Shown: piece after piece, positions 21,368-37,916 of the stretch
Position numbering within the stretch: the first letter of the stretch is position 1
How the letters are laid out: each line of letters begins with the position of its first letter
Position numbers and translations under genes: made by a program
Source: an uncultured Candidatus Saccharibacteria bacterium
Lineage (GTDB): Bacteria > Patescibacteriota > Minisyncoccia > Phycocordibacterales > UBA918
Assembly: GCA_964350645.1 (NCBI GenBank)
Contig: CAYGJY010000001.1
Coordinates: forward strand, 142,316-206,315
DNA length: 64,000 nucleotides
Reading direction: 5' to 3'
Notes under the pieces: model-generated
What the model was told of the DNA's origin: nothing
Database searches by the model: none
The model's input: only the letters and a program-made list of their open reading frames with translations

Positions 21368-21442
21368 ATGTAGCCATTAGAATACCAGAAAACACACGAA
21401 TCGGTAGGGGATTTAGCCTAAAACAAATACATTTTGTAATAT

Positions 21443-21470
21443 TTGACAATTTACAGATTTAAAGTATTAT
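21443..21470 (+). promoter_or_regulatory. Candidate sigma-70 promoter (TTGACA, 16-nt spacer, TATTAT) driving the small lipoprotein-like ORF and the structured element downstream
   Basis: TTGACA is at 21443-21448 and TATTAT at 21465-21470. A GGAG RBS sits before the ATG at 21538. Confidence 0.3.
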
Positions 21471-21537
21471 TTTTCAGTCACGGAGGAGAGTTGGGAAGCC
21501 CTCCAAAGTGACATTCCGACCAACTGAAGGAGTGATC

Positions 21538-21696
21538 ATGAAGATCTTGTGTGTATTGGCGACCCTTTTGGTTGCTGCAGCATGCGCGACGCCACCTGGC
21601 GTTGTGTCACCAAATCGAGAAAAACCGCTTGGGGCGAATCCTCAACCGGTGAAGCCGATGAAGATCGTAAGACCGTCGACATCGCACTGGATTTGA
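21538..21696 (+). CDS. Small (52 aa) lipoprotein-like/secreted Pro-rich peptide
   Basis: The peptide MKILCVLATLLVAAAC has a signal-peptide and lipobox-like N-terminus. It follows a good RBS (gaaggagtgatc) and the stop is immediately followed by a 9-bp GC stem-loop. It could be spurious. Confidence 0.25.
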   Translation: MKILCVLATLLVAAACATPPGVVSPNREKPLGANPQPVKPMKIVRPSTSHWI

Positions 21697-21956
21697 TCCA
21701 CCGGGCGCCCCTTTATGGGGCGCCCACCGGGTAGACGACCAAAATCGTCTGTGGTATGATCCTTACATGATCCTCCTGGTCGGATCTGCTACTCGGGAGC
21801 CTGGCTTCCCACCATATCGTCGGGATTCGACGATAGAGGTTCTCGAGCTTCTTTTAGGCGGCTGACGCGCAATCCGGTGCGTCGGCCGCTACAAAGGCCG
21901 GTAACTATCTTTTGCACACTGGTGCAAGGACAAAGACAAGTTATCCGGCCTTTTTT
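21697..21956 (+). ncRNA. GC-rich, highly structured non-coding element ending in an intrinsic terminator (candidate cis-regulatory leader, riboswitch or small RNA) upstream of the sulfotransferase gene
   Basis: Multiple nested hairpins are present. They are gggcgcccc/ggggcgccc at 21703-21725, atcgtcg/cgacgat, and gcggctgacgc/gcgtcggccgc. The last contains a U-G wobble that forms only on the + strand. A further hairpin ttgcac/gtgcaa is enclosed by ggccggtaac...gttatccggcc, which is followed by TTTTTT at 21951-21956. Confidence 0.3.
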
Positions 21957-22039
21957 CGTGCAAATTTTTTATGGTAGTGGTCACAAAATTAAAGTGTTTT
22001 ACATTTACAAGGCAGTCTATTTACACTATTATCATATAA

Positions 22040-22873
22040 ATGATGACTCCAAAGAACGACCAGACACTGATCTTATTCGGGGGACTACCACGCAGTGGTT
22101 CAACGGTGCTGGGTGAAATACTAGCCCAGAATCCGCAGGTGTATGTTTCACCGACGAGTGGTCTCCTGGCGACAGTCGACCTACTGTGGCGGCAGTGGGA
22201 TAGTATTTCGCAGCACACTGTCGTGCCCCATGAAGAGAATCGTCGTAATGTACTGCAGGCAACTATTGCCAGCTACCATCAGCATCAGTCAGCGCCGTAT
22301 GTAATCGATAAGTCACGTTGTTGGGCCAATCGATTGGAGTTGCTGAATGATTTATTGGGGTACAAAGTTAAACTCATTGCTCCGGTACGCGATGTACGAC
22401 AAATTCTCGCGAGCTTTGAGCAGCTGTGGCGGACAGAGTCACGCATACGCTGCATTAAGCAAGAGCAGCAAGCCGGAGTTTCTTTTCAGACGCTTGAAGG
22501 GCGGATGGCGTACTGGATGTCACCAGCTGAAGCCGTGGGGAAGGCACATAACTCACTCGTGGATGCCTGTCGGCGCGGACTGCAAGACCAGATACTATTT
22601 GTTGACTATGAGCGACTGCTGGCTGATCCGCAAGGAGCTCTCGACACAATCTATCGCTTTCTTGATCTGGAAGCCTGTACACACGATTTTGCAACCATAA
22701 CGGATCGTTTTACAGAAGACAGTTTGGTCTACGGTATTCGTGATTTGCATACTATCCGTCCAGCATTGTCGCCTTCGCAGACGAAGTGGGAAGAGCTCCT
22801 TGGTCCGGCCGCTGAGCAGTACGCTGAGCACAACTTTTGGCTGCATTCACAACTGAATCTACATACTATCTAA
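22040..22873 (+). CDS. Sulfotransferase-family protein (PAPS-dependent type)
   Basis: The N-terminal 5'-PSB loop is LILFGGLPRSGSTVLGEIL. The product is 277 aa with a sulfotransferase-like architecture. Its GC is modestly above the genome average. Confidence 0.6.
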   Translation: MMTPKNDQTLILFGGLPRSGSTVLGEILAQNPQVYVSPTSGLLATVDLLWRQWDSISQHTVVPHEENRRNVLQATIASYHQHQSAPYVIDKSRCWANRLELLNDLLGYKVKLIAPVRDVRQILASFEQLWRTESRIRCIKQEQQAGVSFQTLEGRMAYWMSPAEAVGKAHNSLVDACRRGLQDQILFVDYERLLADPQGALDTIYRFLDLEACTHDFATITDRFTEDSLVYGIRDLHTIRPALSPSQTKWEELLGPAAEQYAEHNFWLHSQLNLHTI

Positions 22874-22896
22874 GCTATTGACTTTTTAATATAACT
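22868..22896 (+). promoter_or_regulatory. Candidate promoter (TTGACT, 17-nt spacer, TATAAA) upstream of the high-GC lipoprotein gene
   Basis: TTGACT is at 22868-22873 and TATAAA at 22891-22896. Confidence 0.25.
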
Positions 22897-23018
22897 GGTG
22901 TATAAAGTACGCACCAACTCACCAATTCTTAATGAATCAGGGTGGGGTGTTCTTCAGGTCTCACAAGGCCTATTAAATGCAACGCGCCCAAGCGAGGCGC
23001 TAAACAAGGACTGAAACG

Positions 23019-23591
23019 ATGAAGATGCTCTATGTTTTGTTGACTGTTCCGTTTATCCTCGGCGCTTGCGGCGCTGAAACCACCGGGACGGCGAGCGCTC
23101 CGGCGCCGGATGCGCCGGCGGCTGAGACTGTCGCGGTGACGGAATCGACTGCCCCGGCGACCAAGCCGGTCACTGAGGTCGATGTCGCGGCGGCTCCGAC
23201 CGAGCCGGCGCCGGCCGCTTCGGAAGAAGTTGAGGTCGCGGCGGTGGAGCCGACGGCTCCGACCGAGCCGGTCCCGGCCGACCCGCGGATGAAGGCGGCT
23301 GCCTTCATGGCTGCAGTCACGAGCTGCGAGGTCAGCACCGGCACGGTGCCGATGTCATTCATCGGCGATGAGACGGGGGGTTCCATGGTGGTGGGCGCAG
23401 GGCGCATCACGGTTCCGTACCGCATGAAGCTCGATGGTGATGGTGAGCTGGTTTTCCAGCGGGACTACCAGGGTTGGGGCACCCGCCCCTTCGAAGTCCG
23501 CAAGGACTCTGTGTGGCTCCGGGGGGACAGCTCTGATTTCGATTGCCCTGTGCCGCAGGAAGTCGCCGCACGCTTCAATGCGGAGACCTGA
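23019..23591 (+). CDS. Lipoprotein with an Ala/Pro/Thr/Glu-rich linker and a small C-terminal globular domain; very high GC, probably horizontally acquired
   Basis: A lipobox is present (FILGAC) and the linker is low-complexity APAPDAPAAETVAV. GC3 is heavily biased (gcg/ccg/gcc codons) at ~68% GC against ~45% in the flanks. Confidence 0.55.
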   Translation: MKMLYVLLTVPFILGACGAETTGTASAPAPDAPAAETVAVTESTAPATKPVTEVDVAAAPTEPAPAASEEVEVAAVEPTAPTEPVPADPRMKAAAFMAAVTSCEVSTGTVPMSFIGDETGGSMVVGAGRITVPYRMKLDGDGELVFQRDYQGWGTRPFEVRKDSVWLRGDSSDFDCPVPQEVAARFNAET

Positions 23592-23595
23592 GAGT

Positions 23596-23655
23596 GGCGG
23601 GGGCGGGTGCTTGCATCCCGCCCCCACCGAACGATGCATTCATTGAATGCCACCG
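23596..23655. terminator. Two consecutive GC-rich hairpins after the high-GC gene, between it and the convergent SagB-like gene
   Basis: The first is gggggcggg-tgcttgcat-cccgccccc. The second is tgcattca-ttgaatgca. Confidence 0.45.
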
Positions 23656-23671
23656 TTAGAGAAAACCATCT

Positions 23672-24391
23672 CTAGCGGTTTTCTTTTGTCTCGACGTCGG
23701 TTTTTCCAAGGGCAAGGGTGTAGATGACATGTTCTGAGCCAGCGATTGTTACAAAAGAGTCATCAAGGAGATCATACAACGGTGCTCCGATAGCCCGGCA
23801 GCCGATGTTAAGTGCGGCAGCAGTTAAATAAATATTTTGTCCGATATGACCAGCTTCGAGGAAAGCGTGTGTATACCCCAGGGTGCCGTATTGAAATAAA
23901 TTGCGGGCTTTTACATGACTGATACATATATATAAAGAAGCACGTTCGATCTTTTCTGGGTCTGGCATTCGACCGCCTATGTCTGGTGCGGATCGACTCA
24001 ACAAGTCAAGGCTATGTTCTTTCGTGTTGTAGTAGTAGGTGCCGGTAGCAAGTGCCGGAGTGTCTTTGGGGACGACTAGGTAGAGATTTAGTGGTTGTAA
24101 GCCGCCAGCTGAAGGAGCGGGGCGTTTGTCTACATCACTCGTTGTGTAGGAGGACAGAAGAATGGTCTCAATCTCGGTGAGTGATAGAGATTCAGTGGTT
24201 GAAAAGGTTTGGGCGGACTGACGAGCAGCTAGTGCGTCACTAAGAGAGATGGGTAGTGGGTTTGGTTCTCTTAGTGGGGTACTCTCATATGTATTGCGGA
24301 GTTGGTTGTCGGCCTGTTCGTAGAGTGCACCAATATTCGAGTGACGGTTCGCTTTTATAAATGAAAAGAAATAGTCCATAGGCTTAGGCAA
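23672..24391 (-). CDS. SagB/McbC-type FMN-dependent dehydrogenase (nitroreductase fold), the azoline oxidase component of TOMM-type pathways
   Basis: A nitroreductase-family core AFLEAGHIGQNIYLTAAALNIGCRAIGA is present along with YLVVPKDTPALATGTYYY. The start overlaps the stop of the upstream YcaO gene by 8 nt. Confidence 0.7.
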   Translation of the reverse strand: MPKPMDYFFSFIKANRHSNIGALYEQADNQLRNTYESTPLREPNPLPISLSDALAARQSAQTFSTTESLSLTEIETILLSSYTTSDVDKRPAPSAGGLQPLNLYLVVPKDTPALATGTYYYNTKEHSLDLLSRSAPDIGGRMPDPEKIERASLYICISHVKARNLFQYGTLGYTHAFLEAGHIGQNIYLTAAALNIGCRAIGAPLYDLLDDSFVTIAGSEHVIYTLALGKTDVETKENR

Positions 24392-25883
24392 AAGGATGAG
24401 GAACAGTATTGATAGTGTCTTTAGTTAATGGTTTGTTGTACTGTGCTTCGTAGAATTTTTGTAGTCTAGGTTGGTTGATTGGTCGTTCAACATCGGCAAA
24501 ATACATATCAATCATATCAGGACTCATCATGCGAACTACTTTGAGTCCATGAGCTTGCGCTAAGGGAGTGGTTTGATCGACCGTATACATAGTAATATTT
24601 TTTCTACGCAAAAAACTTCTGAGCGACAGGTATGTGTTTGGGATACTACTCAGATCAAACTGCGCTTGATAATCCTCAAATGAGATAGTAGTACCCGAGA
24701 TGAAAAAATCAGCCAGAGCGATAATTTGTGGGGTAGACCAAAACCGGTTGCGGTCTTGGATTGATTCTAGATTTGAACCTTCAACCCCCCATGAATATTG
24801 TTTTTCAGGCTGCTCATAGACGTGTGGCCATTTCATAATACTGTACTGTAGTTTTTCAAGCATTGCATGGATGTCAGCGCCCGCGACACCACTCAGTCTA
24901 AGGATAGACGAACGTTTACGATCAACGAGTACCATAATGAGTGATGGGATACCAAGGTCAGTACTACAATCAAGCAGATGTATGTCTAAGTCAGCCTGCT
25001 TTGTTTCAGTAATAAATTCCTGGAATGATGGGACAGTAATTGAGCTCAAGTCGATCTGTTTTGGTGCCGTTGTCGTGAGCCAGTGCAGCAGGAAGCCATC
25101 ACGTTCGATTAGCTCAAAGAAGCCACGCAGGCATGCCTGATCATAAGATGTGTAGGTAGCACAACCGTTAGTATTAGAGCTGCCGAGTAAGGTGCGGTTT
25201 TGGGGGTTTTGATACTGGTAGTAGAGATGGGTTAGTGCCACTGGTAGGTAGACATTTTTTTTGGTTACCATATTTCTCCCAGCTACCCAGTATTCATTTT
25301 TATACAAGGTGTCATCGTATGAGCCGTAATAGGTAAAGAAACTGGGTGCAATATACGTGGAGTCGTCTAAAAAAGAAGGATTGATGTGCCAGTCTGAGTA
25401 GTTGGTTGCGACACCGCTGATTCTTTCGATTGTTTCAGCTAGCGCCACTGTCATGGCCTCGTTATGGCTTTTGTGGGCACTGGACGCCCAGAGATTATGA
25501 AACAGGTGTGGAGCTTGAGGGTTTGGCTGGAGTTTTAAAACTGCCAGAGGCACTCGAGGAAAGCCTGGAGACATAAAGCCAAACGTCCAGTGCGAGACAT
25601 AGCCATCCTGCAGAAGTTTCTCTAAGGTTAGACGATTAAGTGTAGAAAGGGTCTCCAATTCATCATGTTTGCTCTGCAGATAAATTTTACTTTTTGTCAG
25701 TCTTTCAAGTAGGAGACAAAGTTTCCTGGTGATATAAACTCGACAACGATTAGTGAGATTGTCTGGATAGAAGGTTGATTGACTAACTCGGGCCTGATCA
25801 GCAATACGGCTTTCGCTGGTAATAACTTTCTGTAGAGAAATAGTATCAGAGTCGTGTTGGGCTAGTCTGCTCATGTACGACAC
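24384..25883 (-). CDS. YcaO-domain ATP-dependent cyclodehydratase with an N-terminal extension and a proline-rich C-terminus
   Basis: YcaO signature motifs are EAMTVALAETIERISG and FFELIERDGFLLHW. The C-terminus ends ...VPHPFA, a PxPxP-like tail typical of azoline-forming YcaOs. The product is 499 aa. Confidence 0.75.
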   Translation of the reverse strand: MSYMSRLAQHDSDTISLQKVITSESRIADQARVSQSTFYPDNLTNRCRVYITRKLCLLLERLTKSKIYLQSKHDELETLSTLNRLTLEKLLQDGYVSHWTFGFMSPGFPRVPLAVLKLQPNPQAPHLFHNLWASSAHKSHNEAMTVALAETIERISGVATNYSDWHINPSFLDDSTYIAPSFFTYYGSYDDTLYKNEYWVAGRNMVTKKNVYLPVALTHLYYQYQNPQNRTLLGSSNTNGCATYTSYDQACLRGFFELIERDGFLLHWLTTTAPKQIDLSSITVPSFQEFITETKQADLDIHLLDCSTDLGIPSLIMVLVDRKRSSILRLSGVAGADIHAMLEKLQYSIMKWPHVYEQPEKQYSWGVEGSNLESIQDRNRFWSTPQIIALADFFISGTTISFEDYQAQFDLSSIPNTYLSLRSFLRRKNITMYTVDQTTPLAQAHGLKVVRMMSPDMIDMYFADVERPINQPRLQKFYEAQYNKPLTKDTINTVPHPFA

Positions 25884-25899
25884 TCTACACCGAAAGTGT

Positions 25900-27075
25900 T
25901 TATTGTGTCCAATCCGTTAGAAAAGCAATATTTTGGTCGAATTCAGCAAGCGAGATTGTACGAAGAGCTGAAACGTCATCTTGTGTAAGGTCATAAATTT
26001 CCACTCGAGCATTGCGGTTGCTAGGATCGTTGTCGATAACCTGCAGAGCCAGATAGCGCCCTTCTGGTGAAATAGTTGGCCAGATGGTCTGCACATCATT
26101 TTGCGCAAATTGGAAGACGGTACGAAGTGCTACTGGTGCAGCGTTAGAGCTCTGATCGTTGTCCTCAATCTTAAATACTGTCAACCTGTTGATGGTACTG
26201 CTGTCTTCTGATGGATCAGTCAAAAGCAGATACTCACCATCTGGACTGATAGTAATCTGACTTCCATAACCAAGTCCTGTCTGTAGAGGATTCCAGAGAT
26301 TGTAGATAGAGTTTTCAGGATCTTTAACATCAATCACATAAATACCATCAGTCTTGATCACAAAAACAAAATTGTCATCTTTTGACCAAGTTGGATACGC
26401 TGCGTTTTGCGCTAGCACCTGTTCGTCGCTGCTGCCGGTGATAAGTATTGCGTCCCAATTGTCTAGATCACGAAAAGCGAGTATGTCTTCCAGGGCTTCT
26501 GTACCACGCTGTTGTGAAAAAAGTATTTTAGTAGCATCAGTATTTGCAATTTGAGGAAGTCTTTTTCTAATTATTGGAGTGTCATTACTTGTGACAGCAG
26601 TGGTTAGTTGAGTGATTCTTTCTTCATCTTTGACAAAGATTTGTGGGGTGACGGGTTCAGTAACTTCTACTGCCATAGTGGTTGAGATAGCCGGAACTAG
26701 TGCAGCATAGGCTACTACACCAAGTGGGCTAGAATCGTAGGTATAGGCGATGTTTGTGATTTCAGTATTCTGACTGATTGAATTTGATTCAAAGTCGTAT
26801 GTATGTAATTGGTAGGGTAAAAAATCGCTAGCCTGACTAATTTCTTCATCAGCAAGAGTTATATGAAGTGAGCCAGATAACTCTTCTAGAGGGTTTGAGG
26901 CCGTGTATTGATTAGGTACGGTAACAACGTATGTTGGACGAACATCTTCAGGTGACTGCACCTGTGGAGTCAGTGTTGTTGGTTCAGTGACTGAGAGTAG
27001 ATTTGTGGCGTACCAGACTGTCAATCCACTGAGTAGTAGAATTATCAATAAAAGAACTAAGTGTACTTTTTTCAT
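25900..27075 (-). CDS. Secreted beta-propeller protein (TolB/PD40-like repeats)
   Basis: An N-terminal signal/TM segment (MKKVHLVLLLIILLLSGLTVW) is followed by repeated ISPDGEYL / ISPEGRYL blades. Confidence 0.45.
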   Translation of the reverse strand: MKKVHLVLLLIILLLSGLTVWYATNLLSVTEPTTLTPQVQSPEDVRPTYVVTVPNQYTASNPLEELSGSLHITLADEEISQASDFLPYQLHTYDFESNSISQNTEITNIAYTYDSSPLGVVAYAALVPAISTTMAVEVTEPVTPQIFVKDEERITQLTTAVTSNDTPIIRKRLPQIANTDATKILFSQQRGTEALEDILAFRDLDNWDAILITGSSDEQVLAQNAAYPTWSKDDNFVFVIKTDGIYVIDVKDPENSIYNLWNPLQTGLGYGSQITISPDGEYLLLTDPSEDSSTINRLTVFKIEDNDQSSNAAPVALRTVFQFAQNDVQTIWPTISPEGRYLALQVIDNDPSNRNARVEIYDLTQDDVSALRTISLAEFDQNIAFLTDWTQ

Positions 27076-28604
27076 ATAACAGTATTAGAATTTACCTGAT
27101 ACATCTCATCGAGAAGTTGTTGCGAATCTTTGTCGAGACTTTGTAACCACGTAGCTGAGACCTTGGGCATTCCGCCAGGAAGTGGTCCGTATACACCTCC
27201 GAAGTCAAATACAAAACTACGCGTCATGTCTTTGTCTAGTGTGTGCTTGTATGATGCTGGGGCGGTAAACTCTAGTTCAATCCGGTCTTGAAACTTAGCG
27301 TAGACAAACTCGCTGTTATTTTTTTTGCTCAACTTTGCTTTAACAACGGCAGGCTCGTCTGCGGTTGTGGTAGTAAGAACTTCTGAGAGTTCAAACTTTT
27401 CTTCGGTGGTTTCATTTTTAAGAGCCTCAGTTTCAGACACAGCAGGGAATGCAGACAGTAGCTGATGGTTTTTAGTAGCTTCAACAGTTGCATTCACTTG
27501 CCCGTCAGCGGCTATGAATTCGGCTGGGATTTTAATTGCTGTCTTAGTTGCGGCAAAATATCGTGGCTCAATCACAACGGTCTCACTTTTGGTGCCGTCT
27601 TTACTAAAGGTAACTAATAAGGACTTATTGCCAGTAGAAACAGCGTCAGCTTGGGCAGTTTTGATTCCAAAAGAGTCCATAAATGATTTGTCTTGAGGAG
27701 TATCCTGGTTGGTACTCATAAATGATCCAACCAACATAGATAAGGTTCCGGCGAGCATGAACTTACCTAGCTTACTTTTACGAGATGTAAAAGGGGAGGC
27801 TGTAAGGACACCGGCTTCTTGCTGTGGGTAGACGTCGTCGATATGCCAATCCCGGTAGACAGAACTTATAATCAAGTATGTATCAACAGCCTGATCAGCT
27901 ACGAAGGTAAATGAAGCCACATCACCATTACGTAGTGTGCTTTGTTCCTTACTAGCTGAAGGGCAGATGCGGGCAGTCTCAGTAAGTTTTGTATTAGCTC
28001 GATAGACAGTTGCTTCTGTCCCGGCTTTTTCAGATTCTGAGATTGATTTTTTAGAGAAATAAATAGGGGTACCATAATTGCAGTCGACAACGGGTTCAAG
28101 ATTTGCGGGGTGAGTGATTGCTGTGATGCCAACAAAGTCATAGAGACTTTCTTCTGGCTCAATCTCTTGAATCATAAGTTTCACTTTGCCATCTTGGTCT
28201 ACGTGGAGTGGTTTTTGGAGAACATACTTATCAGGAATAATCTCACCAGCGAGATATAGCTCTTTACCGACGCTTAGTACAGGAAAGTGTGAACGCGGCT
28301 TCCCAAACATTACATCGTTGTCCATTACGTATTTTTGTCCGTCCCAGGCGTAGAGAAAAGGGGTTGAGTATGGTCCACCATCACCACCACCACTACAGGA
28401 ACCTGTGCAGCCCGAACAGCCCCCGGCACAGAGGCTGAATAACATTAGGGGGTAGCCACCAAGTAGAGCAGCAAATTCTGAACCAAAAAGGAAGCTAGCT
28501 ACAACAATAATGAAGCCAGTCAAGATTTTTATACACGCTTCTGGCCCTATGTTGCTGATAATTTGACGAGTTTGTGTCAGAAATAGTAGTTGATAAGTAG
28601 GCAT
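27072..28604 (-). CDS. Membrane-anchored protein with a juxtamembrane Cys/Gly/Ser-rich segment (CAGGCSGCTGSCSGGGDGG); otherwise of unknown function
   Basis: Two N-terminal hydrophobic helices are followed by the Cys/Gly/Ser-rich stretch (nt 28374-28430) and then ~430 aa of uncharacterised extracytoplasmic domain. The stop overlaps the start of the beta-propeller gene. Confidence 0.5.
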   Translation of the reverse strand: MPTYQLLFLTQTRQIISNIGPEACIKILTGFIIVVASFLFGSEFAALLGGYPLMLFSLCAGGCSGCTGSCSGGGDGGPYSTPFLYAWDGQKYVMDNDVMFGKPRSHFPVLSVGKELYLAGEIIPDKYVLQKPLHVDQDGKVKLMIQEIEPEESLYDFVGITAITHPANLEPVVDCNYGTPIYFSKKSISESEKAGTEATVYRANTKLTETARICPSASKEQSTLRNGDVASFTFVADQAVDTYLIISSVYRDWHIDDVYPQQEAGVLTASPFTSRKSKLGKFMLAGTLSMLVGSFMSTNQDTPQDKSFMDSFGIKTAQADAVSTGNKSLLVTFSKDGTKSETVVIEPRYFAATKTAIKIPAEFIAADGQVNATVEATKNHQLLSAFPAVSETEALKNETTEEKFELSEVLTTTTADEPAVVKAKLSKKNNSEFVYAKFQDRIELEFTAPASYKHTLDKDMTRSFVFDFGGVYGPLPGGMPKVSATWLQSLDKDSQQLLDEMYQVNSNTVI

Positions 28605-28679
28605 AGTTTGTTATTAGGATTGATACATATAATGTATACATTATACACCGATGTGGGTGATAGGTTTCGTTGAGCTTGT

Positions 28680-29651
28680 TTATAGTGTAGCGGTAATAAT
28701 GTGCGAAATGTCGTCGCAGCTATATATGGTTATGTCTTTAAGATGGGTATTCTCGCAGATTGATTTCCAGTCACTGAGTGTTCGAAGTCCGGTTTGATTG
28801 GTTAATGTATGCACGTGTTGGTATACCGCAACCAGTTTTCTCGTCTCAGCGTTAAGTGAGTTCAATTGCTCATCTGTAAAATAGCTTTGTTCTGCAAAAA
28901 GTAACTGGGCGCCAGGGAAATGATTTTGAAGCGAAGTTATGTAGTTTATAAATTCAGAATTAGTCGGTGTAATTTCATGTAGTACTGTCATAAAGGTAAT
29001 GAGGCACCCTGCGTAGGCAGCCTTCCCCCCTAGTCCTGCTCGGTCTTTCCAATCGATAATATCTTTGACGTCAGCTTTAATAAACTGGAATTGTTCTCTT
29101 AGCGACCGATACGGTTCTCCCCGATCAATACCAATGAGTTTTATGTTTTTTGCTTCTAGCTGGGAAAGAAATGCCCCTGAACCACAACCAAGATCAATAA
29201 TAGTATGAGGATCAGAAAGCTTTGGGAGTATTTCCTTATTGATCTTAGTGACAAACTTTTGGCTATATATTTCACTTGAAATATTAAGTGCTGAGCTTGT
29301 TGCCGATCCTATTAGAGTTGCTGCAGAGAGGTTTTCATCAGATGTCTTTGTTAGTACGTCATGATAGGCTTCAGTAAAATGTAATAAATTTTTTACCTGG
29401 TCGGTAACTAAGCTTTTTCCTGCAGTAACAAATATTCCGTCATAGCTAAGGTAATTGTTATCATAGTTACTAAGAAAAGTGCAGAGGTTGTGAATGTCAC
29501 TGAGATTGATATTCTTATTTTTTACCCAGTGAGAAAGTTCGATCCGTGTGTGCTCACTTAGTTCACTTAGTAACCCGTAACGTTGCAGTTTTAGTAATTG
29601 AGAAAAGAAGCACCAGTTAAAGACGAGGTCAGAGATTGGTAATTTGTTCAT
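28680..29651 (-). CDS. Class I SAM-dependent methyltransferase
   Basis: Motif I IIDLGCGSGAFLSQL and a post-I acidic residue (IGIDRGE) are present. The start is uncertain because the listed ORF (to 29702) overlaps the upstream gene. Confidence 0.6.
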   Translation of the reverse strand: MNKLPISDLVFNWCFFSQLLKLQRYGLLSELSEHTRIELSHWVKNKNINLSDIHNLCTFLSNYDNNYLSYDGIFVTAGKSLVTDQVKNLLHFTEAYHDVLTKTSDENLSAATLIGSATSSALNISSEIYSQKFVTKINKEILPKLSDPHTIIDLGCGSGAFLSQLEAKNIKLIGIDRGEPYRSLREQFQFIKADVKDIIDWKDRAGLGGKAAYAGCLITFMTVLHEITPTNSEFINYITSLQNHFPGAQLLFAEQSYFTDEQLNSLNAETRKLVAVYQHVHTLTNQTGLRTLSDWKSICENTHLKDITIYSCDDISHIITATL

Positions 29652-30804
29652 ATAATTTTTCACGTTCAGTTTGCGTTGCTGCTGTGATATAGAAGAATAC
29701 ACGCCCTAAGTGGCCAGTAAAAAACATAAAAGGTATCACACCACGGGCTGAGGCTTTCGAGAAAAGTATACCGCGATTACGACATTGCTCAATTAGGGTA
29801 TCGATTGGTATGTGTTTCCAGTCTGGATTAGACACTTCAAGTGCTACATACGGCTGTTTAGTCGCGATTTTTTCATAGATACCGTATGCATATGAGGAGA
29901 TGACTCGACGAGGATTTGCTTCAACCCAGAGTAGGCCACTTGATTTTGAGAGAATGGCGTTTAGGCCAAGGTGACCACGGTAGCCCATCTTTTGGTAGGC
30001 AGAACCTATTTTTACGGCGTCGCGTTCGATTACTTGGCGAAGTTCAGGATCGATTGTATGGTACGACTCACAGCCTCGATATGAGCGTTTGTTCTGGTAA
30101 AAAAGTTGATTATGAAGCGATAGGGTCTGCACCGCTGCCCCGGTAACTAGTAGTTGTATACTAGGTGAGAGTGATACATCTGGAATCCAAGCCTCTACGA
30201 TATATTTACCAGTTCCTGTTAACTCGTGAGCGGGCCGAATGTCTTTATGGGTGCTTATGGCGTGGTGCAGGGTGTCTGGATTATATACCTCGGCATTTAA
30301 ACCACTTACGCCGTCCTCAGCTTTAATGATGACACTGTTGTTACCTGACCAGAAGAGACGCATTATCTTTACGTAATTCAACCACTTACTTGTGCGGGCT
30401 ACGTGACTGCCGGCTGGTGTAGAGATGTCAATATTGGCACATATTTTCTTAAACAAGGCTTTGCTTACAAAATCGTTATAGCAGCTTGGTATAGTGACAG
30501 ATCCTAGTTGTTGCGCGAGTGTTTCTTCTTTCTCAGTCCAGTTAAATACATCGAGTTCGGTTGGGGTAATGGCAGTAATTTGCTTGAGTGAGTTGCCGCT
30601 GATTGGGTTAGTAACAGTGCGAAGTTCTTCAGGTATGATCCCAATTTCTGCATAAAACGCACATAGTTTTGGGCTTTCATAGGGGATAACCACTGTAGTA
30701 TCAGGGGTGCTGAATACTAAGCCAGAAAATCCAAAATGAGTGATGTCTGTATTAGTAGTGTGCTTAAAAGGGATGTGGAGTCGATGCCAAATTACTGATT
30801 CCAT
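29629..30804 (-). CDS. ATP-grasp-fold enzyme (peptide/amide ligase-like)
   Basis: The segment VIIKAEDGVSGLNAEVY has an ATP-grasp Lys and Gly-rich loop. The C-terminal LWVEANPRR is an E-x-N Mg/ATP motif. Confidence 0.5.
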   Translation of the reverse strand: MESVIWHRLHIPFKHTTNTDITHFGFSGLVFSTPDTTVVIPYESPKLCAFYAEIGIIPEELRTVTNPISGNSLKQITAITPTELDVFNWTEKEETLAQQLGSVTIPSCYNDFVSKALFKKICANIDISTPAGSHVARTSKWLNYVKIMRLFWSGNNSVIIKAEDGVSGLNAEVYNPDTLHHAISTHKDIRPAHELTGTGKYIVEAWIPDVSLSPSIQLLVTGAAVQTLSLHNQLFYQNKRSYRGCESYHTIDPELRQVIERDAVKIGSAYQKMGYRGHLGLNAILSKSSGLLWVEANPRRVISSYAYGIYEKIATKQPYVALEVSNPDWKHIPIDTLIEQCRNRGILFSKASARGVIPFMFFTGHLGRVFFYITAATQTEREKLYEQITNL

Positions 30805-30865
30805 GGTGCTTTAAAAGTTAATCATTTTAGATTTACTTGTGTAACGTATTGTATACTTTTATAAC

Positions 30866-31693
30866 ATGACTGGAAAACGTATTAGTTATTATGTGACTGT
30901 ATTTAGTATCTGTACGATAGCAGGAGTAACTTACTTTTTTTTAATGGAGAGAGGTGACTCAGCTTTATACAAGGAAAATTATGATGCTGTAAACATCAGT
31001 GATACAGCAACGACTGAAGAATTGTTTCAAAAAGGTGAATATTACTTCAATCACGATGATGATCCGGCTGGTCCGTATGATATCAAAGAGGCGCGACGGT
31101 ACTATGAAGCGACGATTCGAAAAGATCCGCAAGCAATCGGGGCAGCCTGGTATCAGTTGGGCCGGATTGATTTTATTGAAGGAAAATTCAATGCAGCGTT
31201 GTATAAGTTTGAAAAATTAGAAGAGTATTTTCCAGAATCAGAAAGTAATATCAATCCTAACTACATGGCGGGATTGGTGTATGGTTATCAAGCTAGAAGG
31301 ACGAAAGACCAAGCTGACTGGGACGCTGCAGAGGCTGCTTTTGTTGACTATATAGAGTATGAACCGTATGCACCGTGGCCGCGGGTTGATTTAGCCTGGA
31401 TATATTTTGCACAGGGGAAGTTTGAGGAGATGAAGCCAGTACTAGGTGAAGGTCTCGTTTATGATGGCGATAATGCTTGGTTGCACAATATGTATGGACT
31501 GGCGATGCTTAATACTGGAGAAAAAGCAATTGCTCAAGAGCATTTTGGTTTTGCTGCTACGCTAGCTGAGGCACTCACACCGGAAGATTGGGGACAATCA
31601 TATCCGGGTAATAATCCCGCAGACTGGGAACAGGGTTTGGAAGAATTTAAAATTGCGATCCAGAGAAATCAAAATTTGGCAGCAGTTGAGTAA
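30866..31693 (+). CDS. Membrane-anchored TPR-like repeat protein
   Basis: An N-terminal TM helix is followed by helical repeats with TPR-like spacing (ARRYYEATIRKDPQAIGAAWYQLGRIDFIEGKFNAAL). Confidence 0.4.
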   Translation: MTGKRISYYVTVFSICTIAGVTYFFLMERGDSALYKENYDAVNISDTATTEELFQKGEYYFNHDDDPAGPYDIKEARRYYEATIRKDPQAIGAAWYQLGRIDFIEGKFNAALYKFEKLEEYFPESESNINPNYMAGLVYGYQARRTKDQADWDAAEAAFVDYIEYEPYAPWPRVDLAWIYFAQGKFEEMKPVLGEGLVYDGDNAWLHNMYGLAMLNTGEKAIAQEHFGFAATLAEALTPEDWGQSYPGNNPADWEQGLEEFKIAIQRNQNLAAVE

Positions 31694-31716
31694 ATTGTTG
31701 TAGGTTATACTGCAGT

Positions 31717-33936
31717 ATGCATCGGTTAGTGCCAGTTTTGGCGTTTTTATCAGGAGTCTGTGGAATTGCTTATGAGTTACTGTACTTCAGGATAATCAGC
31801 GCTTACTTAGGAGATATTTTTTATGTCGGTGCCGCAGTGGTAACTGTTTTTTTTCTCGGTATAGCCTTCGGGTCTTTATACGCTACTGATAAGTATCGTT
31901 ATTTGCCACTTGCAGAGTTTGCCTTAGGGGTTTATGCCATCATTGTAAGTTTCGGACTTCTGCATTTTGGATTGTCTATCACGACAGCCGTCGCACAGTT
32001 ACCTTTCTCTGAAATGATGAATCTGCTTGTAGCAGTTTTTGTAATCCTCGTACCGCCAGCATTTTTGGTCGGTCTGACGGCTCCATGGTTTGTATTTTAT
32101 GTCAGAAACACGAATTTATTTGTCAATAATTTTAGTATCGTGTACTGGCTATACAATCTTGGGGCGGCAGCTTCAGTTTTGTTGGTTGAGTACGTTTTCA
32201 TTAGGTCTTTGGGAATTTCAGCCAGCTTACTGCTAGTGAGCGTTATTAATTTTATTGTCGCTGGGACTCTGTTTCGAATCAAGGCTCCCGCAAAGGTTTC
32301 TGGGGAGATTGTTGCAAGAAACACCGTACCACAACAAGCTGTGCTTCTGCTCAGTGCACTTAGTTTTGTTAGTGGGATACTCCAAATGCTCGTTTTATAT
32401 CAAGTTATTCGCTATGTGGGTCCAATAGCAGAGAATTTTGCATTGTTTATGGTGGCTACACTAACGAGTATTTCAGTCGGAACAGTACTGGTTAGTTATG
32501 GTCGCATTAGTTTCGCTACTATTTGTTTGTGGATTCCGGCCATTATCGGAGTACAGTTTTTGTTGTTGCCTGAATTGATCTGGCTTTATTCAGTGCTATA
32601 CACCAACGGTGGAGTATTTCTAGGCAAGCTGTGTTTAATTGGGTTACTGGTAGTGCCAGTATTCAGTTGGTTTGGAGCAACCGCCGCAGCGTTAGTTGAA
32701 GAGCATAAGATCGCTCACACAGGTTGGGTGTTAGCTGTTACTGCTGGGAGTAATGTATGTGGCTTTTTAGGTTTTTTATTAGTGTTACATCGACCAGACG
32801 TAGCGTTATCTTGGATCATTTTTGGTTGTGGAGTTGGCATCGGTTTGCTAGTGCTGTTCTCAAGACCGTATGCTCTTAACGTATTACTGGTGTTAGCGCT
32901 TAGTGTGGTTTTGCTTGTCAGCGTGCTTGTCCGTTGGCCATCATATCTCGATTCAGTTGCTTATCATAAGGTCCCGGAAACTGTCATGCAGGGGGATGTT
33001 TTTTCAGATGAGACGTTACTGGTAGAGCAGCAATTTGGAGAAGATGTGCGGGTAGTACGTTCAGCAGTAAACAACGATGTGGTGAGATTGCAGTTCAACG
33101 GGTATCACTCATTAACTATCGGACCAGGCACAAACGCCGTTCGTAATGAAGCATTTGTCGGTATCGTAGGCTCTCATTTTACGGCCGCCACTGAGTCCGC
33201 GTTAGTGCTTGGGTTGGGGGCTGGCTTTACAACAGCAGCAGTAGTTGATCGGTATGACACCGTGACAGTGGTTGAGATTAACCCCTTAATGAAAAAGATA
33301 GTCACCTATTTTTCTAAAGAAAATAATAGTGTGAGCTTGGCGAAAAATCTAACAGTCCTTGAACAAGATGGGATCGTCGCACTCGCCAATAGTGCTGAAC
33401 AGTATGATTTAGTCGTGAATACCGTGACTACACCAGCTTATTTTTCAGCTAATAAATTGTGGACGGCAGATGTGTTTGATTTGATCAAACAGCGTTTAAG
33501 TCCCGGTGGTGTGTTTGTCGGGTGGCTCGACAGTCGGTTGGGTGATGTCGGTACCAATATCATGCTCGACACGCTCGAGTCGGTCTTTGCCGAGTGTTCA
33601 TACGCCTATATCAATCAGGAATATTTTGCTTTTGTGTGTAGTGATGGACCACTGACGCATCAAGATCGATCGTGGCCGGCCGATTACTTTAGTGGCCTGT
33701 TAGCTGAAGATTGGCCAGGAGTGTCCGAAATTTTGCTACTTGATTCGCTTATGTTTGATCATGTCCAGCCTGAATCAAGTGCAAAAATGATCAATACGCT
33801 GGACCATCCGGTGTTGTCATATTTAGTACTTAAGCAGGATCTGAGGTCATCAACATTCTCGAGGACAGCACTGGTTGAGTCATTTGCAGCGAAAGATCGT
33901 AGCAGTAGCAGTCAGTCAATTTTAGATCAATGGTAA
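31717..33936 (+). CDS. Polytopic membrane domain fused to a spermidine-synthase-like (aminopropyltransferase-fold) C-terminal domain
   Basis: ~12 TM helices are followed by VLGLGAGFTTAAVVDRYDTVTVVEINPLM and LSPGGVFVGW, a spermidine synthase-like Rossmann domain. Confidence 0.5.
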   Translation: MHRLVPVLAFLSGVCGIAYELLYFRIISAYLGDIFYVGAAVVTVFFLGIAFGSLYATDKYRYLPLAEFALGVYAIIVSFGLLHFGLSITTAVAQLPFSEMMNLLVAVFVILVPPAFLVGLTAPWFVFYVRNTNLFVNNFSIVYWLYNLGAAASVLLVEYVFIRSLGISASLLLVSVINFIVAGTLFRIKAPAKVSGEIVARNTVPQQAVLLLSALSFVSGILQMLVLYQVIRYVGPIAENFALFMVATLTSISVGTVLVSYGRISFATICLWIPAIIGVQFLLLPELIWLYSVLYTNGGVFLGKLCLIGLLVVPVFSWFGATAAALVEEHKIAHTGWVLAVTAGSNVCGFLGFLLVLHRPDVALSWIIFGCGVGIGLLVLFSRPYALNVLLVLALSVVLLVSVLVRWPSYLDSVAYHKVPETVMQGDVFSDETLLVEQQFGEDVRVVRSAVNNDVVRLQFNGYHSLTIGPGTNAVRNEAFVGIVGSHFTAATESALVLGLGAGFTTAAVVDRYDTVTVVEINPLMKKIVTYFSKENNSVSLAKNLTVLEQDGIVALANSAEQYDLVVNTVTTPAYFSANKLWTADVFDLIKQRLSPGGVFVGWLDSRLGDVGTNIMLDTLESVFAECSYAYINQEYFAFVCSDGPLTHQDRSWPADYFSGLLAEDWPGVSEILLLDSLMFDHVQPESSAKMINTLDHPVLSYLVLKQDLRSSTFSRTALVESFAAKDRSSSSQSILDQW

Positions 33937-33937
33937 T

Positions 33938-35044
33938 CTACTGGATTGTCGTACGTGGCTGTGTTTGTAATTTTTTGCAAATCGGATATATGAACACTAA
34001 AGTCAACATAGAAACAATTGCAGCAAGGAAGAGATTGTCTTCCTCAAATACGAAGAAGCTCACTATAAATAATGCATACAGATGTAGTACATAACACACA
34101 AGTGGTGAACGACCGAATACTGATAAGACAACACCCCAGGAACGTTTTGAGCTCAAGTGCATAAGTATACCCAGAAGGAGGAAGTTGCAACCGATGGTGA
34201 TTAATAAAAATACAATGCTGGGGGGATATTTACTCAGCGTTATGAAGGACAGAGGGATACTGTAGTCATTAAGGCCGTAATTACCAATCTCAAATATGCG
34301 GAGTATAAGGCCAGTACAGAGGAGAACAAGGCCTGATTTGAACAGTGTTATAGAAACTTTTTCAGGTTGCTTGATAAGTAGTCGGCCGCATACCATTCCT
34401 AGTAGAGCGACACCAAACCAAGGCAGCAAAGGGTATAAGACAGATATATGACTTGAAAATCCTGGTTGCAGGAGTGGCCAAAAGTAAAAGGGAAGTATTA
34501 TTTTAGAGTGGGAAACTATGGCCGAGAATACAATGATTAACATTGAACCGCTGAATAGATACCAACTTTTAGCCCGGTAGAGTAAAGCGCACAGTGAAAG
34601 TGTGACCCCGAGGCAGTATAAGACGCCGAAATAGTAATAGGTGTTTTGGGAGTCAGTTAGGTGCTTAAAATGTTCTTGTATTGATGCAAATATAGTGTCA
34701 GTATCGGACACCCATACGAGATTAATGACTGCGAATTGCAGAAGAATGAGTAATATGCCCCGGAGGAATAACTGCAGTCTAATCTTAGTATGGGACCAAC
34801 CGATAGAGATTCTGTGATTCACAAAGAGGACTATACTGACACCGAGTACAAGAAAGAAACCTGGAGCAACAATGTGAGATATCAATCTTGGTATAGCAGT
34901 TAGATATGAGGTGTAAGGGGTGCTGGTATTTGAGTACATCTCTAAGAACGATACACCGGCAATAAAATACAGTGCATGGTCAAAAACCATACTAATCAGT
35001 AGCACACCCCGTAAGTGATCAATGGCGATAATTCTGTTTATCAT
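33938..35044 (-). CDS. DUF1624-like membrane acyltransferase-family protein
   Basis: The N-terminus IAIDHLRGVLLISMVFDHALYF is typical of the DUF1624 / heparan-glucosaminide N-acetyltransferase-like family. ~9 TM helices are predicted. Confidence 0.4.
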   Translation of the reverse strand: MINRIIAIDHLRGVLLISMVFDHALYFIAGVSFLEMYSNTSTPYTSYLTAIPRLISHIVAPGFFLVLGVSIVLFVNHRISIGWSHTKIRLQLFLRGILLILLQFAVINLVWVSDTDTIFASIQEHFKHLTDSQNTYYYFGVLYCLGVTLSLCALLYRAKSWYLFSGSMLIIVFSAIVSHSKIILPFYFWPLLQPGFSSHISVLYPLLPWFGVALLGMVCGRLLIKQPEKVSITLFKSGLVLLCTGLILRIFEIGNYGLNDYSIPLSFITLSKYPPSIVFLLITIGCNFLLLGILMHLSSKRSWGVVLSVFGRSPLVCYVLHLYALFIVSFFVFEEDNLFLAAIVSMLTLVFIYPICKKLQTQPRTTIQ

Positions 35045-35115
35045 TGTTGATACAGTAAGTGTAGCGCACCAGAGATATGAAATGTGCTCTAGCGCAGCAT
35101 TGTGTATAAAGGAGT

Positions 35116-37776
35116 ATGTTGAAGAACAAGTGTGACATAATTAAATTAGTAATAACACTCGTATTTATGAAATTGGGACTTTTCAAACGATATTTTTATA
35201 CTGGACTTTTCCTGTGTCTCGGAGCCGTACTGGCGACAGCCTGTTACTTATTTTTCCAGTCTTCTGAGACGCTGGTTGTTGATCAAGATAGTAATTCAGT
35301 GGAGCTTGGTCTGCTCGAGCTTTCGCCACTTGGTGAGGCTGGTGGCTACGCCATGCCGGCTAGTGGCTGTAGTGTGATTCACCGTGATTGTACTGGTGGT
35401 TATGGCTGTACTGGTAAAGATTGTACTCCAGTTTGCCAAGGTTGGGGCCCTCGATATGTAAACTCTTGTTCAATTAGTACTGATCTACGCACTCGCAAAT
35501 ATGCCGATGGCAGCTGGAGTGGGTACAGTGTTAATGACAGGAACATGGTAAATGGTAATAGTATTCAGGTTAATTGGAGTACGTCACTGAGTGATCCAGG
35601 CGATAACAGTCGGATCGTCTGTACACAAGAAAACTTTTCCGATGGAGGATTGAGTGGAAATAATATTAATGTGGTAGAGCCGACAGCTGGGAATAGCACT
35701 AACTATCGAGTTGTCTGTTCCTACTATAACCGAAGTTCAGCTTCAGCTGTGAGAGTGACAAATATATCGCCACTTGCTGTAAACGGATCGTGTGGAACTG
35801 CTAACGGCCGAACATTTTCGCATACTGATACGAGCTACGGTAGTTACACTGCCTGTAGCGCTGGTTCTGCTTCTGGATTTTCATTTCCTGCTGCCGGCTC
35901 GAGTGACTCTTGGACTTGTTCAGGTAGTAACGGGGGTGCACCAGCGAGTTGTTCTGCAAGCAGGAGTGCGGTCCCAGCTGATGACGATCTTACACCTGAT
36001 GAGCCGACTATTGATGGCGTCATTCCGACGACTGTCAATACTCGAATTCCGGTAGGGACGGCTGCTAGTCTCTACACGGTCCAACGAAATATCGGGAATG
36101 CTAACAGCGCAACGTATCGTCTTCGTTTCTACGTTGATCAACCAGTCAGTTCTGCTATTAACGCGGGTGGTATTTTCGACAACCAAGGAGCGTTGGCTCC
36201 AAATGGAAATCGTCCACACCCTAGGACTTGGACTCCAACTGAGACGGGTGTGCATGCAATTCGAGTCGAGACTGAAAACTCTGGCACATGGACTCAGTAC
36301 AACCAAGATACAGATCTTGCAGCCAATAATGACGATAGTAGTACCTACAGTTTTTGGGTAATTCCACAGCCGGTTGATGACTTAACATACACGTGCAGCG
36401 CGGATGGGTCTCAGATTACCTTCAATTGGACTGCTCCAGCTGGTACAGTTGGCAACACATTTGCTTGGCGGTTTGACAATATTACTCAGGGAGGATGGAC
36501 AAATACCTGCAGTAGTATTAATCCAGGTGATGAATGTCTCGATATAACGAGTACTTCTCGGACGGTTAACATTTCACCAGGTGATTCAGTAAGCGCTTGG
36601 GTGCACGCACGAGGGAACGATAGTGTGTGGGGAGCTAGTGACTCAACTGGTACGTTTACGTGTGGACAGAGCGACCTTGATCCTAATAATCCATTGTTCA
36701 ATGGTAGCAACCCAAATGGTCAAGATTACAGAATCGGAACACCAATTACCATCAGTTCTATTCAGCAGAATAAGGGCGGAGTGACTAGTGGACAGTATCG
36801 GTTCCGATTCTTGGTTGATCAGCCAATATCAGCCAATATCGCTCCAGGAGGAAATCTTGATGGACAAGGTCCGATTATTGCAGGTGGCACAAATTCTCAT
36901 TCAACAACTTGGACGCCAACCGAATTAGGGGTTCACACAGTCTCGGCACAAACATTTGCCAATGGTTCGTTTGGTACCTATGTCGACTCAGATACCAGCA
37001 ATAATAATTCAGCCGCTCTAAGCTTTAACATTGTCCCTGTACCAGAATGTATTGATGGTTCTGATAATGATAATGATGGTTTGACAGATAGTGCAGATCC
37101 CGATTGTCCCGGCGGCGGTGCAGATGGTTGTTCATCACCACCATGTAATGAGGGTACCAACGATACACCAGTAGATGCCGATATTGAGGTATGTCTCTTA
37201 GGTGATACCGGTGGTAGTAGTTGTACACCAGACACACTGAGTATTGTTGGGGTTGATGAGGTTGAGATTTCCTGGGACAGTACCTTTGCGAGCAATTGTA
37301 CGTTTACCAATTTTGATGGCGGTGGTCTGACTGGTTCGGCATCTCGAAATGGAACTGACGACACCATTGCTGAACCAAGTGATAGTTCAAGAACATATAC
37401 GGTAACGTGTATTGATTCGAGTGATGGCACATCTATCAGTGACAGTGTAATAGTGAGTCATGCAGCTTCAGGCAGCACAGATGCTTGTGTTCCACCATAT
37501 GACATTTCAGCTGATCCAAGAGTGGTGCGTTCAGGTACTAATTCGACGATTTCCTTCACCAATTATAATGAAGCAACTGGCTGTACGTTGCATCAAAATG
37601 ATATTACCAATCCAGCTGTGTCAACTTCGGGGACACGCTCATGCGGAGTTCCAACAACGTATACTGCAGGTCCACTTACTAGTGCTTCAACGTATGTCTT
37701 AAATTGTCCAGATGATCCAGGGCCGACACGACCAACTGTTACTATTCCCGTTATCCCAGTCATTGACGATAACTAG
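35116..37776 (+). CDS. Large secreted/surface-anchored Cys-rich protein with internally duplicated domains (candidate adhesin or surface-layer component)
   Basis: A signal/TM N-terminus is present (likely true start MKLGLF at 35167). Duplicated ~60-aa modules occur (YRLRFYVDQPVSSAINAGG...TWTPTETGVHAI and YRFRFLVDQPISANIAPGG...TWTPTELGVHTV). A DGSDNDNDGLTDSADPDCPGG Ca-binding-like loop is present and the composition is S/T/G/N-rich. Confidence 0.5.
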   Translation: MLKNKCDIIKLVITLVFMKLGLFKRYFYTGLFLCLGAVLATACYLFFQSSETLVVDQDSNSVELGLLELSPLGEAGGYAMPASGCSVIHRDCTGGYGCTGKDCTPVCQGWGPRYVNSCSISTDLRTRKYADGSWSGYSVNDRNMVNGNSIQVNWSTSLSDPGDNSRIVCTQENFSDGGLSGNNINVVEPTAGNSTNYRVVCSYYNRSSASAVRVTNISPLAVNGSCGTANGRTFSHTDTSYGSYTACSAGSASGFSFPAAGSSDSWTCSGSNGGAPASCSASRSAVPADDDLTPDEPTIDGVIPTTVNTRIPVGTAASLYTVQRNIGNANSATYRLRFYVDQPVSSAINAGGIFDNQGALAPNGNRPHPRTWTPTETGVHAIRVETENSGTWTQYNQDTDLAANNDDSSTYSFWVIPQPVDDLTYTCSADGSQITFNWTAPAGTVGNTFAWRFDNITQGGWTNTCSSINPGDECLDITSTSRTVNISPGDSVSAWVHARGNDSVWGASDSTGTFTCGQSDLDPNNPLFNGSNPNGQDYRIGTPITISSIQQNKGGVTSGQYRFRFLVDQPISANIAPGGNLDGQGPIIAGGTNSHSTTWTPTELGVHTVSAQTFANGSFGTYVDSDTSNNNSAALSFNIVPVPECIDGSDNDNDGLTDSADPDCPGGGADGCSSPPCNEGTNDTPVDADIEVCLLGDTGGSSCTPDTLSIVGVDEVEISWDSTFASNCTFTNFDGGGLTGSASRNGTDDTIAEPSDSSRTYTVTCIDSSDGTSISDSVIVSHAASGSTDACVPPYDISADPRVVRSGTNSTISFTNYNEATGCTLHQNDITNPAVSTSGTRSCGVPTTYTAGPLTSASTYVLNCPDDPGPTRPTVTIPVIPVIDDN

Positions 37777-37797
37777 GTCTACGTACGTGTACTAGCC

Positions 37798-37846
37798 CAG
37801 ATACACAAACGACCTGCAACACTGTTGCAGGTCGTTTGTGTATCTG
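37798..37846. terminator. Perfect 23-bp inverted repeat with a 3-nt loop (bidirectional terminator or protein-binding palindrome)
   Basis: cagatacacaaacgacctgcaac-act-gttgcaggtcgtttgtgtatctg lies between convergent genes. Confidence 0.45.
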
Positions 37847-37916
37847 TGTATGATCCGTTAATCAATAGGTCATGTTTGACCTCGACTCTGATAGTGTGTT
37901 TATTTTAGCGGATAGT

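Follow-up and report, generated by a model that had tools for sequence, protein, structure and literature searches.

How does a gene with a GC (guanine plus cytosine) content of 66% come to lie in a genome that otherwise averages about 45%? This question is raised by a stretch of 64,000 nucleotides from contig CAYGJY010000001.1 (assembly GCA_964350645.1), deposited as an uncultured Candidatus Saccharibacteria bacterium and referred to as the window in the following. The gene, an open reading frame (ORF) on the forward strand, encodes a putative lipoprotein. An original prediction, made from the letters of the sequence, took it for a recent horizontal acquisition from a high-GC, actinobacterial-type donor, plausibly the host of a Saccharibacteria-like epibiont. 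We find that the ORF forms a true compositional island and uses synonymous codons in a foreign manner, that it is missing from all related loci and that its product is a complete orphan. The explanation that we favor, and consider probable if far from assured, is a genuine lipoprotein gene of foreign origin, which sits in an insertion-prone region, would be expressed from a promoter and a terminator of host type and would present a small β-rich binding domain at the cell surface.

The ORF (23019-23591) has a GC content of 66.1%, with 0.67, 0.55 and 0.76 at the first, second and third codon positions (GC1, GC2 and GC3), while that of the window is 45.4%. Measured against background windows of 573 bp (mean 0.452, standard deviation 0.029, maximum 0.546), this corresponds to a z-score of 7.3, and within the 64 kb it is the sole GC outlier of this kind. 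A maximum-likelihood fit with two change points delimits the GC-rich segment to 23057-23629 (GC 0.691 within, 0.467 without), with the 5' edge falling in 23049-23069 and the 3' edge in 23622-23641. Likewise, the tetranucleotide distance of the ORF to the remainder of the window is the highest among all windows (z = 10.0). The original estimate of a gene of ~68% GC in a genome of ~45% GC thus lies between our values for the ORF (66%) and for the segment (69%).

This bias is not due to the Ala/Pro-rich linker that the gene encodes, because it is the synonymous sites that deviate, and they do so in the linker and in the C-terminal domain alike. With the amino acids of the ORF and the codon choice seen in the other 52 ORFs of the window, a GC3 of 0.42 is expected, as opposed to the observed 0.76 (z = 10.1). 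The linker alone reaches a GC3 of 0.77 (z 6.7), and the non-repetitive C-terminal domain alone also 0.77 (z 7.5). In the codon table, CCG accounts for 17 of the 19 Pro codons, and A-ending codons are almost lacking. The strong GC3 preference of the codons, which had been noticed by eye, is therefore borne out, and the windowed GC, GC3 and tetranucleotide analyses that had been proposed as a check all mark the region as a clear outlier.

The island lies within a larger accessory patch, as the original prediction had supposed from its neighbors. In 62 of the 80 species-level relatives that we collected by their HisS sequence (55-83% identity), hisS is directly preceded (< 400 nt) by a homolog of a gene with a bPH_2 domain, an adjacency that is split in the window by 16.5 kb of inserted DNA. 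Insertions of 0.7-7.3 kb occur at the same junction in nine relatives, and nine others have no bPH_2 homolog within the locus; the hisS-bPH_2 junction is a recurrent insertion hotspot. Besides the GC-rich lipoprotein, the genes of the insertion encode a small lipoprotein-like protein (lpp1), a sulfotransferase (22040-22873), a nitroreductase/SagB-like protein, YcaO, two uncharacterized proteins, a methyltransferase, an ATP-grasp protein, a TPR protein, a spermine-synthase-like protein, an acyltransferase and an uncharacterized protein of 886 residues. These genes have no counterparts in related loci, with the partial exception of the closest relative, L002: the sulfotransferase, the nitroreductase and a 391-residue protein are found in none of 79 related loci, and a distant YcaO in L002 only. 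The GC-rich lipoprotein gene is missing from all 80 related hisS loci, as the prediction of a recent arrival would have it. All other genes of the insertion have a host-like GC content (0.41-0.51), and the GC-rich gene forms a later or separate layer within the accessory patch. At this junction, L004, L017, L027, L033, L035, L042, L047, L048 and L071 carry unrelated insertions, of which that in L048 opens with a stretch of elevated GC content (0.55-0.62 vs 0.49, about 600-2100).

Judging from its HisS sequence, the genome resembles those of Kaiserbacteria and Paceibacteria, in the Parcubacteria group, rather than those of Saccharibacteria. The independently named relatives are metagenome-assembled genomes (MAGs) of Kaiserbacteria, Paceibacteria, Parcubacteria and Nomurabacteria. 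MAGs from third-party annotation (TPA) co-assemblies that are labeled 'uncultured Candidatus Saccharibacteria' interleave with Kaiserbacteria at every identity level, and we therefore treat this label as generic. In the NCBI taxonomy, Kaiserbacteria sit in the Parcubacteria group of Patescibacteria, and we know of no host for this group. The premise of a Saccharibacteria-like epibiont is thus not supported for this organism.

The lipoprotein itself is a complete orphan. Among 5.8 billion proteins, an indexed search with the full-length sequence retrieved only the query itself (P0001). With the C-terminal 103 residues, an exhaustive phmmer search of 1.84 billion representatives retrieved the query and six highly repetitive proteins, whose matches are spurious because their E-values are inflated by the summing of many repeat units. 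Residues 120-152 (GGSMVVGAGRITVPYRMKLDGDGELVFQRDYQG) resemble one repeat unit of P0004, an IPTL-CTERM protein with six β-propeller-like repeats, with 45% identity over 33 residues; this may serve as a weak lead at the level of a motif, short of established homology. Protein-level scans of metagenome and viral contigs yielded no homolog, tblastn against plasmids and phages yielded nothing, and blastn against plasmids gave short matches to the linker only. Likewise, no Pfam family matches at E <= 0.01, nothing among the PDB sequences is significant, all NCBIfam matches have E >= 0.11 and fall on the low-complexity linker, and no profile of an actinobacterial lipoprotein family, such as the 19-kDa LpqH, matches in Pfam or NCBIfam. 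The protein has been seen in one sample only.

What the gene encodes and how it is equipped for expression is summarized in Table 1. The coding strand follows from the distribution of GC over the codon positions: GC3 > GC1 > GC2 is typical of genuine genes in GC-rich genomes and is found in the forward frame of the ORF, whereas GC2 > GC1, typical of shadow ORFs, is found in an antisense ORF of 131 residues. The database gene call begins at Met3 and is accordingly 188 residues long. At its N-terminus, the protein has a charged n-region, a hydrophobic h-region and a lipobox (ILGA/C, with Cys17 at 23067-23069), as is characteristic of type II signal peptides, and it is the sole strict match to the lipobox pattern [LVI][ASTVGI][GAS]C within the first ~35 residues among the ORFs of the window. 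The linker contains a 30-nt direct repeat (23188-23217 and 23251-23280, 90% identical), which encodes APTEP. The lipobox, the Ala/Pro/Thr/Glu linker and the small C-terminal domain with two Cys residues, all named in the original prediction, can be read directly from the sequence, as can the AT-rich TTGACT...TATAAA upstream of the gene.

Table 1. Sequence features of the GC-rich lipoprotein gene and of the insertion that contains it (positions in the window; UTR, untranslated region)
Feature	Position	Strand	Remarks
Accessory insertion, 16.5 kb	21368..37916		between hisS (20108-21367, -) and the bPH_2-domain gene (37917-38492, -)
Promoter-like element, sigma-70-type	22878..22906	+	TTGACT (22878-22883), 17-nt spacer, TATAAA (22901-22906); near-consensus, AT-rich like the host
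Small GC-rich 5' UTR hairpin	22984..23000	+	GCGCC-caagcga-GGCGC
Shine-Dalgarno-like AAGGA	23006..23010	+	8 nt 5' of the ATG
Orphan lipoprotein gene	23019..23591	+	190 codons, stop codon at 23589-23591
Putative type II signal peptide, MKMLYVLLTVPFILGA/C	23019..23069	+	Lys in the n-region (MK), 11-residue hydrophobic core, lipobox
Acidic Ala/Pro/Thr/Glu/Val-rich linker	23070..23279	+	residues 18-87, ~70 residues, GC 0.74
C-terminal domain, ~100 residues	23280..23588	+	Cys103 and Cys176; predicted helix, eight strands, helix
GC-rich hairpin, GGCGGGGGCGGG-N9-CCCGCCCCCACC	23596..23628	+	12-bp stem, without T-run; followed by ACCGAACGATG
Intrinsic-terminator-like hairpin, 11 pairs	23652..23689	+	stem 23652-23679, followed by TTTCTTTTGT; host-like, AT-richer

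In one respect, the flanking signals depart from this earlier picture, in which the gene was said to bring its own GC-rich terminator. The 3' UTR folds strongly (minimum free energy -52 kcal/mol, z -5.8) and contains two main hairpins with a small additional one between them. A Rho-independent terminator consists of a GC-rich stem that is directly followed by a U-run, and it is the second, AT-richer hairpin that has this form, whereas the first, GC-rich one has no U-run. The 3' edge of the GC-rich segment coincides with the end of this first hairpin, which probably came along with the gene. Of the two, the T-run hairpin is the more likely to act as the terminator; it extends into the 3' end of the nitroreductase gene, which is convergent, and would be shared with that gene.

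The hisS-bPH_2 junction also holds an insertion in L002, the closest relative, whose HisS is 83% identical. Reading away from hisS, L002 carries an lpp1 homolog, a structured non-coding element, a near-identical promoter and the gene for a 169-residue lipoprotein (8675-9181, reverse strand), which likewise has a lipobox, an Ala/Pro linker and a small C-terminal domain and constitutes the GC maximum of its locus (0.60 vs 0.48). The promoter element reads TTGACTTTTT-N7/8-TGGTGTATAAAG, and the Shine-Dalgarno equivalent, CTAACAAGGA, stands in the same place as in the window. A local alignment of promoter and UTR between the two loci scores 38, compared with 15 +/- 2 in shuffles; past the promoter, the similarity of the UTRs is marginal, as 35 of 500 shuffles equal it (p about 0.07). 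The two lipoproteins show no similarity in either protein or coding DNA, and that of L002 is also an orphan in the homolog search. Its GC surplus resides at codon positions 1 and 2, with a near-native GC3 (0.57 vs 0.49, z 2.1). Furthermore, the window has a sulfotransferase gene between the RNA element and the lipoprotein gene, while L002 has none. Genes of one kind thus occupy comparable positions in the two genomes, but foreign synonymous sites are seen only in the copy of the window. An incoming gene may have replaced a resident lipoprotein gene; the observations agree with this without proving it. Homologs with a similar bias from the same low-GC lineage, which would have spoken for a native gene, did not come to light: the L002 counterpart is non-homologous, and its GC surplus is mostly driven by amino acid composition.

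We also considered the promoter as a conserved element of this position. A metagenome scan for TTGACTTTTT-N5-10-TGGTGTATAAAG returned four unrelated loci, however, and we regard it as a generic strong promoter. An unrelated metagenome contig of 55% GC (L083) has the same promoter before an ORF of 66% GC (189-660, oriented), which encodes repeated CxxC...CxxC zinc-ribbon-like units. Within the window, a second copy of the -10-like motif (TTGTGTATAAAG) lies at 35100-35111 on the forward strand, 5 nt before the start of the ORF 35116-37776, a spacing that points to a leaderless transcript or else to a wrongly assigned start codon.

The course of events that we infer from these observations would be as follows. 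The gene body, about 23057-23629 and including the GC-rich 3' hairpin, was probably transferred horizontally from a GC-richer genome, once the lineage had separated from its closest sampled relative and recently enough that its composition has yet to drift toward that of the host. It would be transcribed from the AT-rich, near-consensus promoter and end at the host-type T-run terminator. Its product would be exported by the Sec pathway, lipid-modified and cut at Cys17, and would stay anchored to the membrane on its outer side. From there, some 70 residues of acidic linker, probably disordered, would present a small β-rich domain of ~100 residues, which may have a disulfide bond and most likely has a binding function.

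Several observations weigh against this explanation. No donor-lineage homolog occurs in any searched collection, and hence there is no phylogenetic evidence of transfer. Around the 570-bp segment, there are no flanking direct repeats, integrase or other marks of mobility, where an integrase domain was looked for among the scanned neighboring proteins and a transfer RNA (tRNA) target with ARAGORN. (ARAGORN does report a tRNA-Arg(TCT) at 20294-20373 on the forward strand; it lies wholly inside hisS, antisense to it, has no Rfam tRNA match and is probably a false positive.) The GC-normalized dinucleotide signature of the ORF, Karlin's delta*, is only moderately odd, with 46 of 620 background windows scoring higher. 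Moreover, the 5' edge of the GC-rich segment coincides with the lipobox inside the ORF, the signal-peptide part having a GC content of 0.48, which a simple whole-gene insertion does not require; this is not decisive, since the amino acids of signal peptides by themselves entail a low GC content. Lastly, as regards function, the single-sequence AlphaFold model of the C-terminal domain is of low confidence (predicted local distance difference test score, pLDDT, 61.7; predicted template modeling score, pTM, 0.49), and a Foldseek search with it against PDB and BFVD gave no match at E <= 0.001 (best E 0.03). Of the claim of a recent horizontal acquisition not yet ameliorated, the island, its foreign codon usage and its absence from relatives therefore stand, while a homolog in a donor is missing.

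An acquisition from the actinobacterial host of a Saccharibacteria-like epibiont, with the product as a host-interaction factor, would account for the high GC content, the foreign codon usage and the Ala/Pro-rich linker of the lipoprotein, and positions 23605-23697 show a very weak Rfam similarity to an actinobacterial RNA motif, NLPC-P60 (RF03033). We consider this origin highly improbable. No homolog, actinobacterial or other, was found at the protein or DNA level, and the organism groups with Kaiserbacteria and Paceibacteria. The RNA motif match is at chance level (25.8 bits, where the gathering score is 53.7; E 0.14 for a search of 2.5 kb) and runs into sequence of host composition, and we rejected it; an Rfam scan of the whole window gave nothing at the gathering score. 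Furthermore, the codon choice does not fit a donor of more than 68% GC, because Asp is encoded by seven GAT and four GAC codons, 9 of the 30 Ala codons are GCT, and GC3 is only 0.76. By the general relation of GC3 to genomic GC content, these values suggest a moderately rather than extremely GC-rich donor, at a rough guess of ~60% GC. The sulfotransferase gene, which we considered as a co-transferred marker of the donor, was discarded, as its best homologs reach no more than 42% identity and its GC3 departs only slightly from the native level (z 2.7). Conversely, the gene may not be foreign at all but a native, fast-evolving surface lipoprotein at a variable position downstream of the conserved lpp1 and RNA element, with a GC content that stems from an Ala/Pro/Gly-rich composition and from a local mutation or selection bias. 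The L002 lipoprotein, an orphan like that of the window, with its Ala/Pro linker, its location behind a near-identical promoter and downstream of an lpp1 homolog and RNA element and its GC peak, argues for such a scenario. We nevertheless regard it as unlikely, given that the L002 surplus is at codon positions 1 and 2 (GC3 z 2.1) whereas GC3 in the window deviates with a z-score of 10, even in the non-repetitive C-terminal domain, that the two proteins have no similarity, that the UTR similarity is marginal and the promoter motif generic, and that the sulfotransferase gene intervenes in the window.

Even if the sequence is foreign, it need not be a functional gene. At 69% GC, stop codons are scarce, and a foreign fragment might be open by chance; antisense ORFs of 131, 94 and 62 residues are also present, we estimate the chance of a 190-codon ORF in any of the six frames at a few per cent, and with no homologs there is no evidence of purifying selection. 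The codon-position pattern fits the forward frame, however, the ORF starts with a canonical signal peptide and lipobox, it is accompanied by AAGGA, a consensus promoter and a downstream terminator, and the predicted domain has regular secondary structure, all of which makes a non-functional fragment distinctly unlikely. More trivially, a MAG in which the gene is seen in one sample only might contain an assembly chimera or contaminant reads. This is extremely improbable: the same protein is encoded on the 464,680-bp NCBI contig and on a Logan contig from run ERR3534981, which matches the window at 100% identity over 13,887 bp and spans both junctions; the frame continues from the low-GC signal peptide into the high-GC part; and an internal chimera of 570 bp with two clean junctions is itself improbable. 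On the provenance of the sample (ERP117304, ERR3534981), a look through the literature returned nothing. A more far-reaching proposal would be that the region downstream of hisS is a dedicated position for a replaceable surface lipoprotein, equipped with lpp1, a small RNA (sRNA) and a strong promoter, and here filled by a gene from a GC-richer cohabitant, possibly the host, so that the product would be a host-derived factor of episymbiosis. We attach little probability to it.

The favored explanation, a genuine lipoprotein gene of foreign origin, can be set beside several known systems. With single-gene GC islands it shares the sharp discontinuity in GC content and codon usage, the absence at the syntenic site and the location in a hotspot with accessory genes; it differs in having no donor homolog, mobility gene or flanking repeats, in its size of ~570 bp and in the 5' edge inside the ORF. 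Like lipoproteins processed by Lgt and LspA, the product has an MK n-region, a hydrophobic core, the L-G-A-C motif with Cys17, a low-complexity tether and a small domain, but neither Pfam nor NCBIfam has a lipoprotein family that its mature domain matches. A literature search on lipoprotein signal peptidase in the candidate phyla radiation found nothing. Small β-barrel lipoproteins of the lipocalin-like or MliC type and LanI lipoproteins are similar in size, in the predicted helix and eight strands, in the two Cys residues and in the lipid anchor; the fold matches to them are weak and non-significant (best E 0.03; lipocalin-like E 0.22), rest on the low-confidence model and come with no sequence similarity.

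The adjoining YcaO/dehydrogenase cluster adds a further likeness to LanI-type lipoproteins, which confer immunity to ribosomally synthesized and post-translationally modified peptides (RiPPs). This proximity suggested an immunity role. The gene and the YcaO operon run toward each other, however, and differ in composition, and we see no similarity to LanI. In view of its orientation and composition, the lipoprotein gene was not co-acquired with this operon. The operon (23672-30804, reverse strand) encodes the nitroreductase/SagB-like dehydrogenase, a YcaO protein of 499 residues, the 391-residue protein with weak PD40 similarity, an uncharacterized protein of 510 residues, the methyltransferase and the ATP-grasp protein, and has the appearance of an azoline-type RiPP cluster, located here in a Parcubacteria-type genome. 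Its intergenic gaps contain no candidate small ORF for a RiPP precursor. The YcaO of L002 shares 27% identity and is encoded in reversed orientation.

On the other side, toward hisS, lpp1 is a lipoprotein-like ORF of 52 residues (21538-21696, forward strand; MKILCVLATLLVAAAC...KPMKIVRPSTSHWI), followed by a GC-rich hairpin (21697-21735). The first 26 nt of lpp1 match the start of the GC-rich lipoprotein gene at 73% identity, perhaps by chance, and its homolog in L002 shares 36% identity (E 7e-9). Between lpp1 and the sulfotransferase gene lies a candidate structured sRNA (21731-21965, forward strand), with a counterpart in L002 (9355-9625, reverse strand). This element has a promoter-like sequence of its own (TAGACG-17-TGgTATGAT) and a long terminator hairpin with a T-run, it folds with minimum free energy z-scores of -6.9 in the window and -5.4 in L002, and a 14-bp hairpin within it shows compensatory changes between the two. 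It is missing from the other 79 hisS loci. An assignment of 21700-21965 to transfer-messenger RNA (tmRNA) or another known RNA was discarded, as Rfam gave no match even at E <= 10 and ARAGORN found neither tRNA nor tmRNA.

Compositional islets that carry single genes for surface proteins are a familiar mark of horizontal transfer. In this sense, the event at the hisS-bPH_2 junction is an ordinary one, a single-gene islet, whereas its product is a new orphan. It speaks for foreign DNA, not yet ameliorated, that enters a small Parcubacteria-type genome at a recurrent insertion hotspot. If the donor were identified in the same sample, it would provide a rare clue to the organisms that live beside this uncultured lineage.

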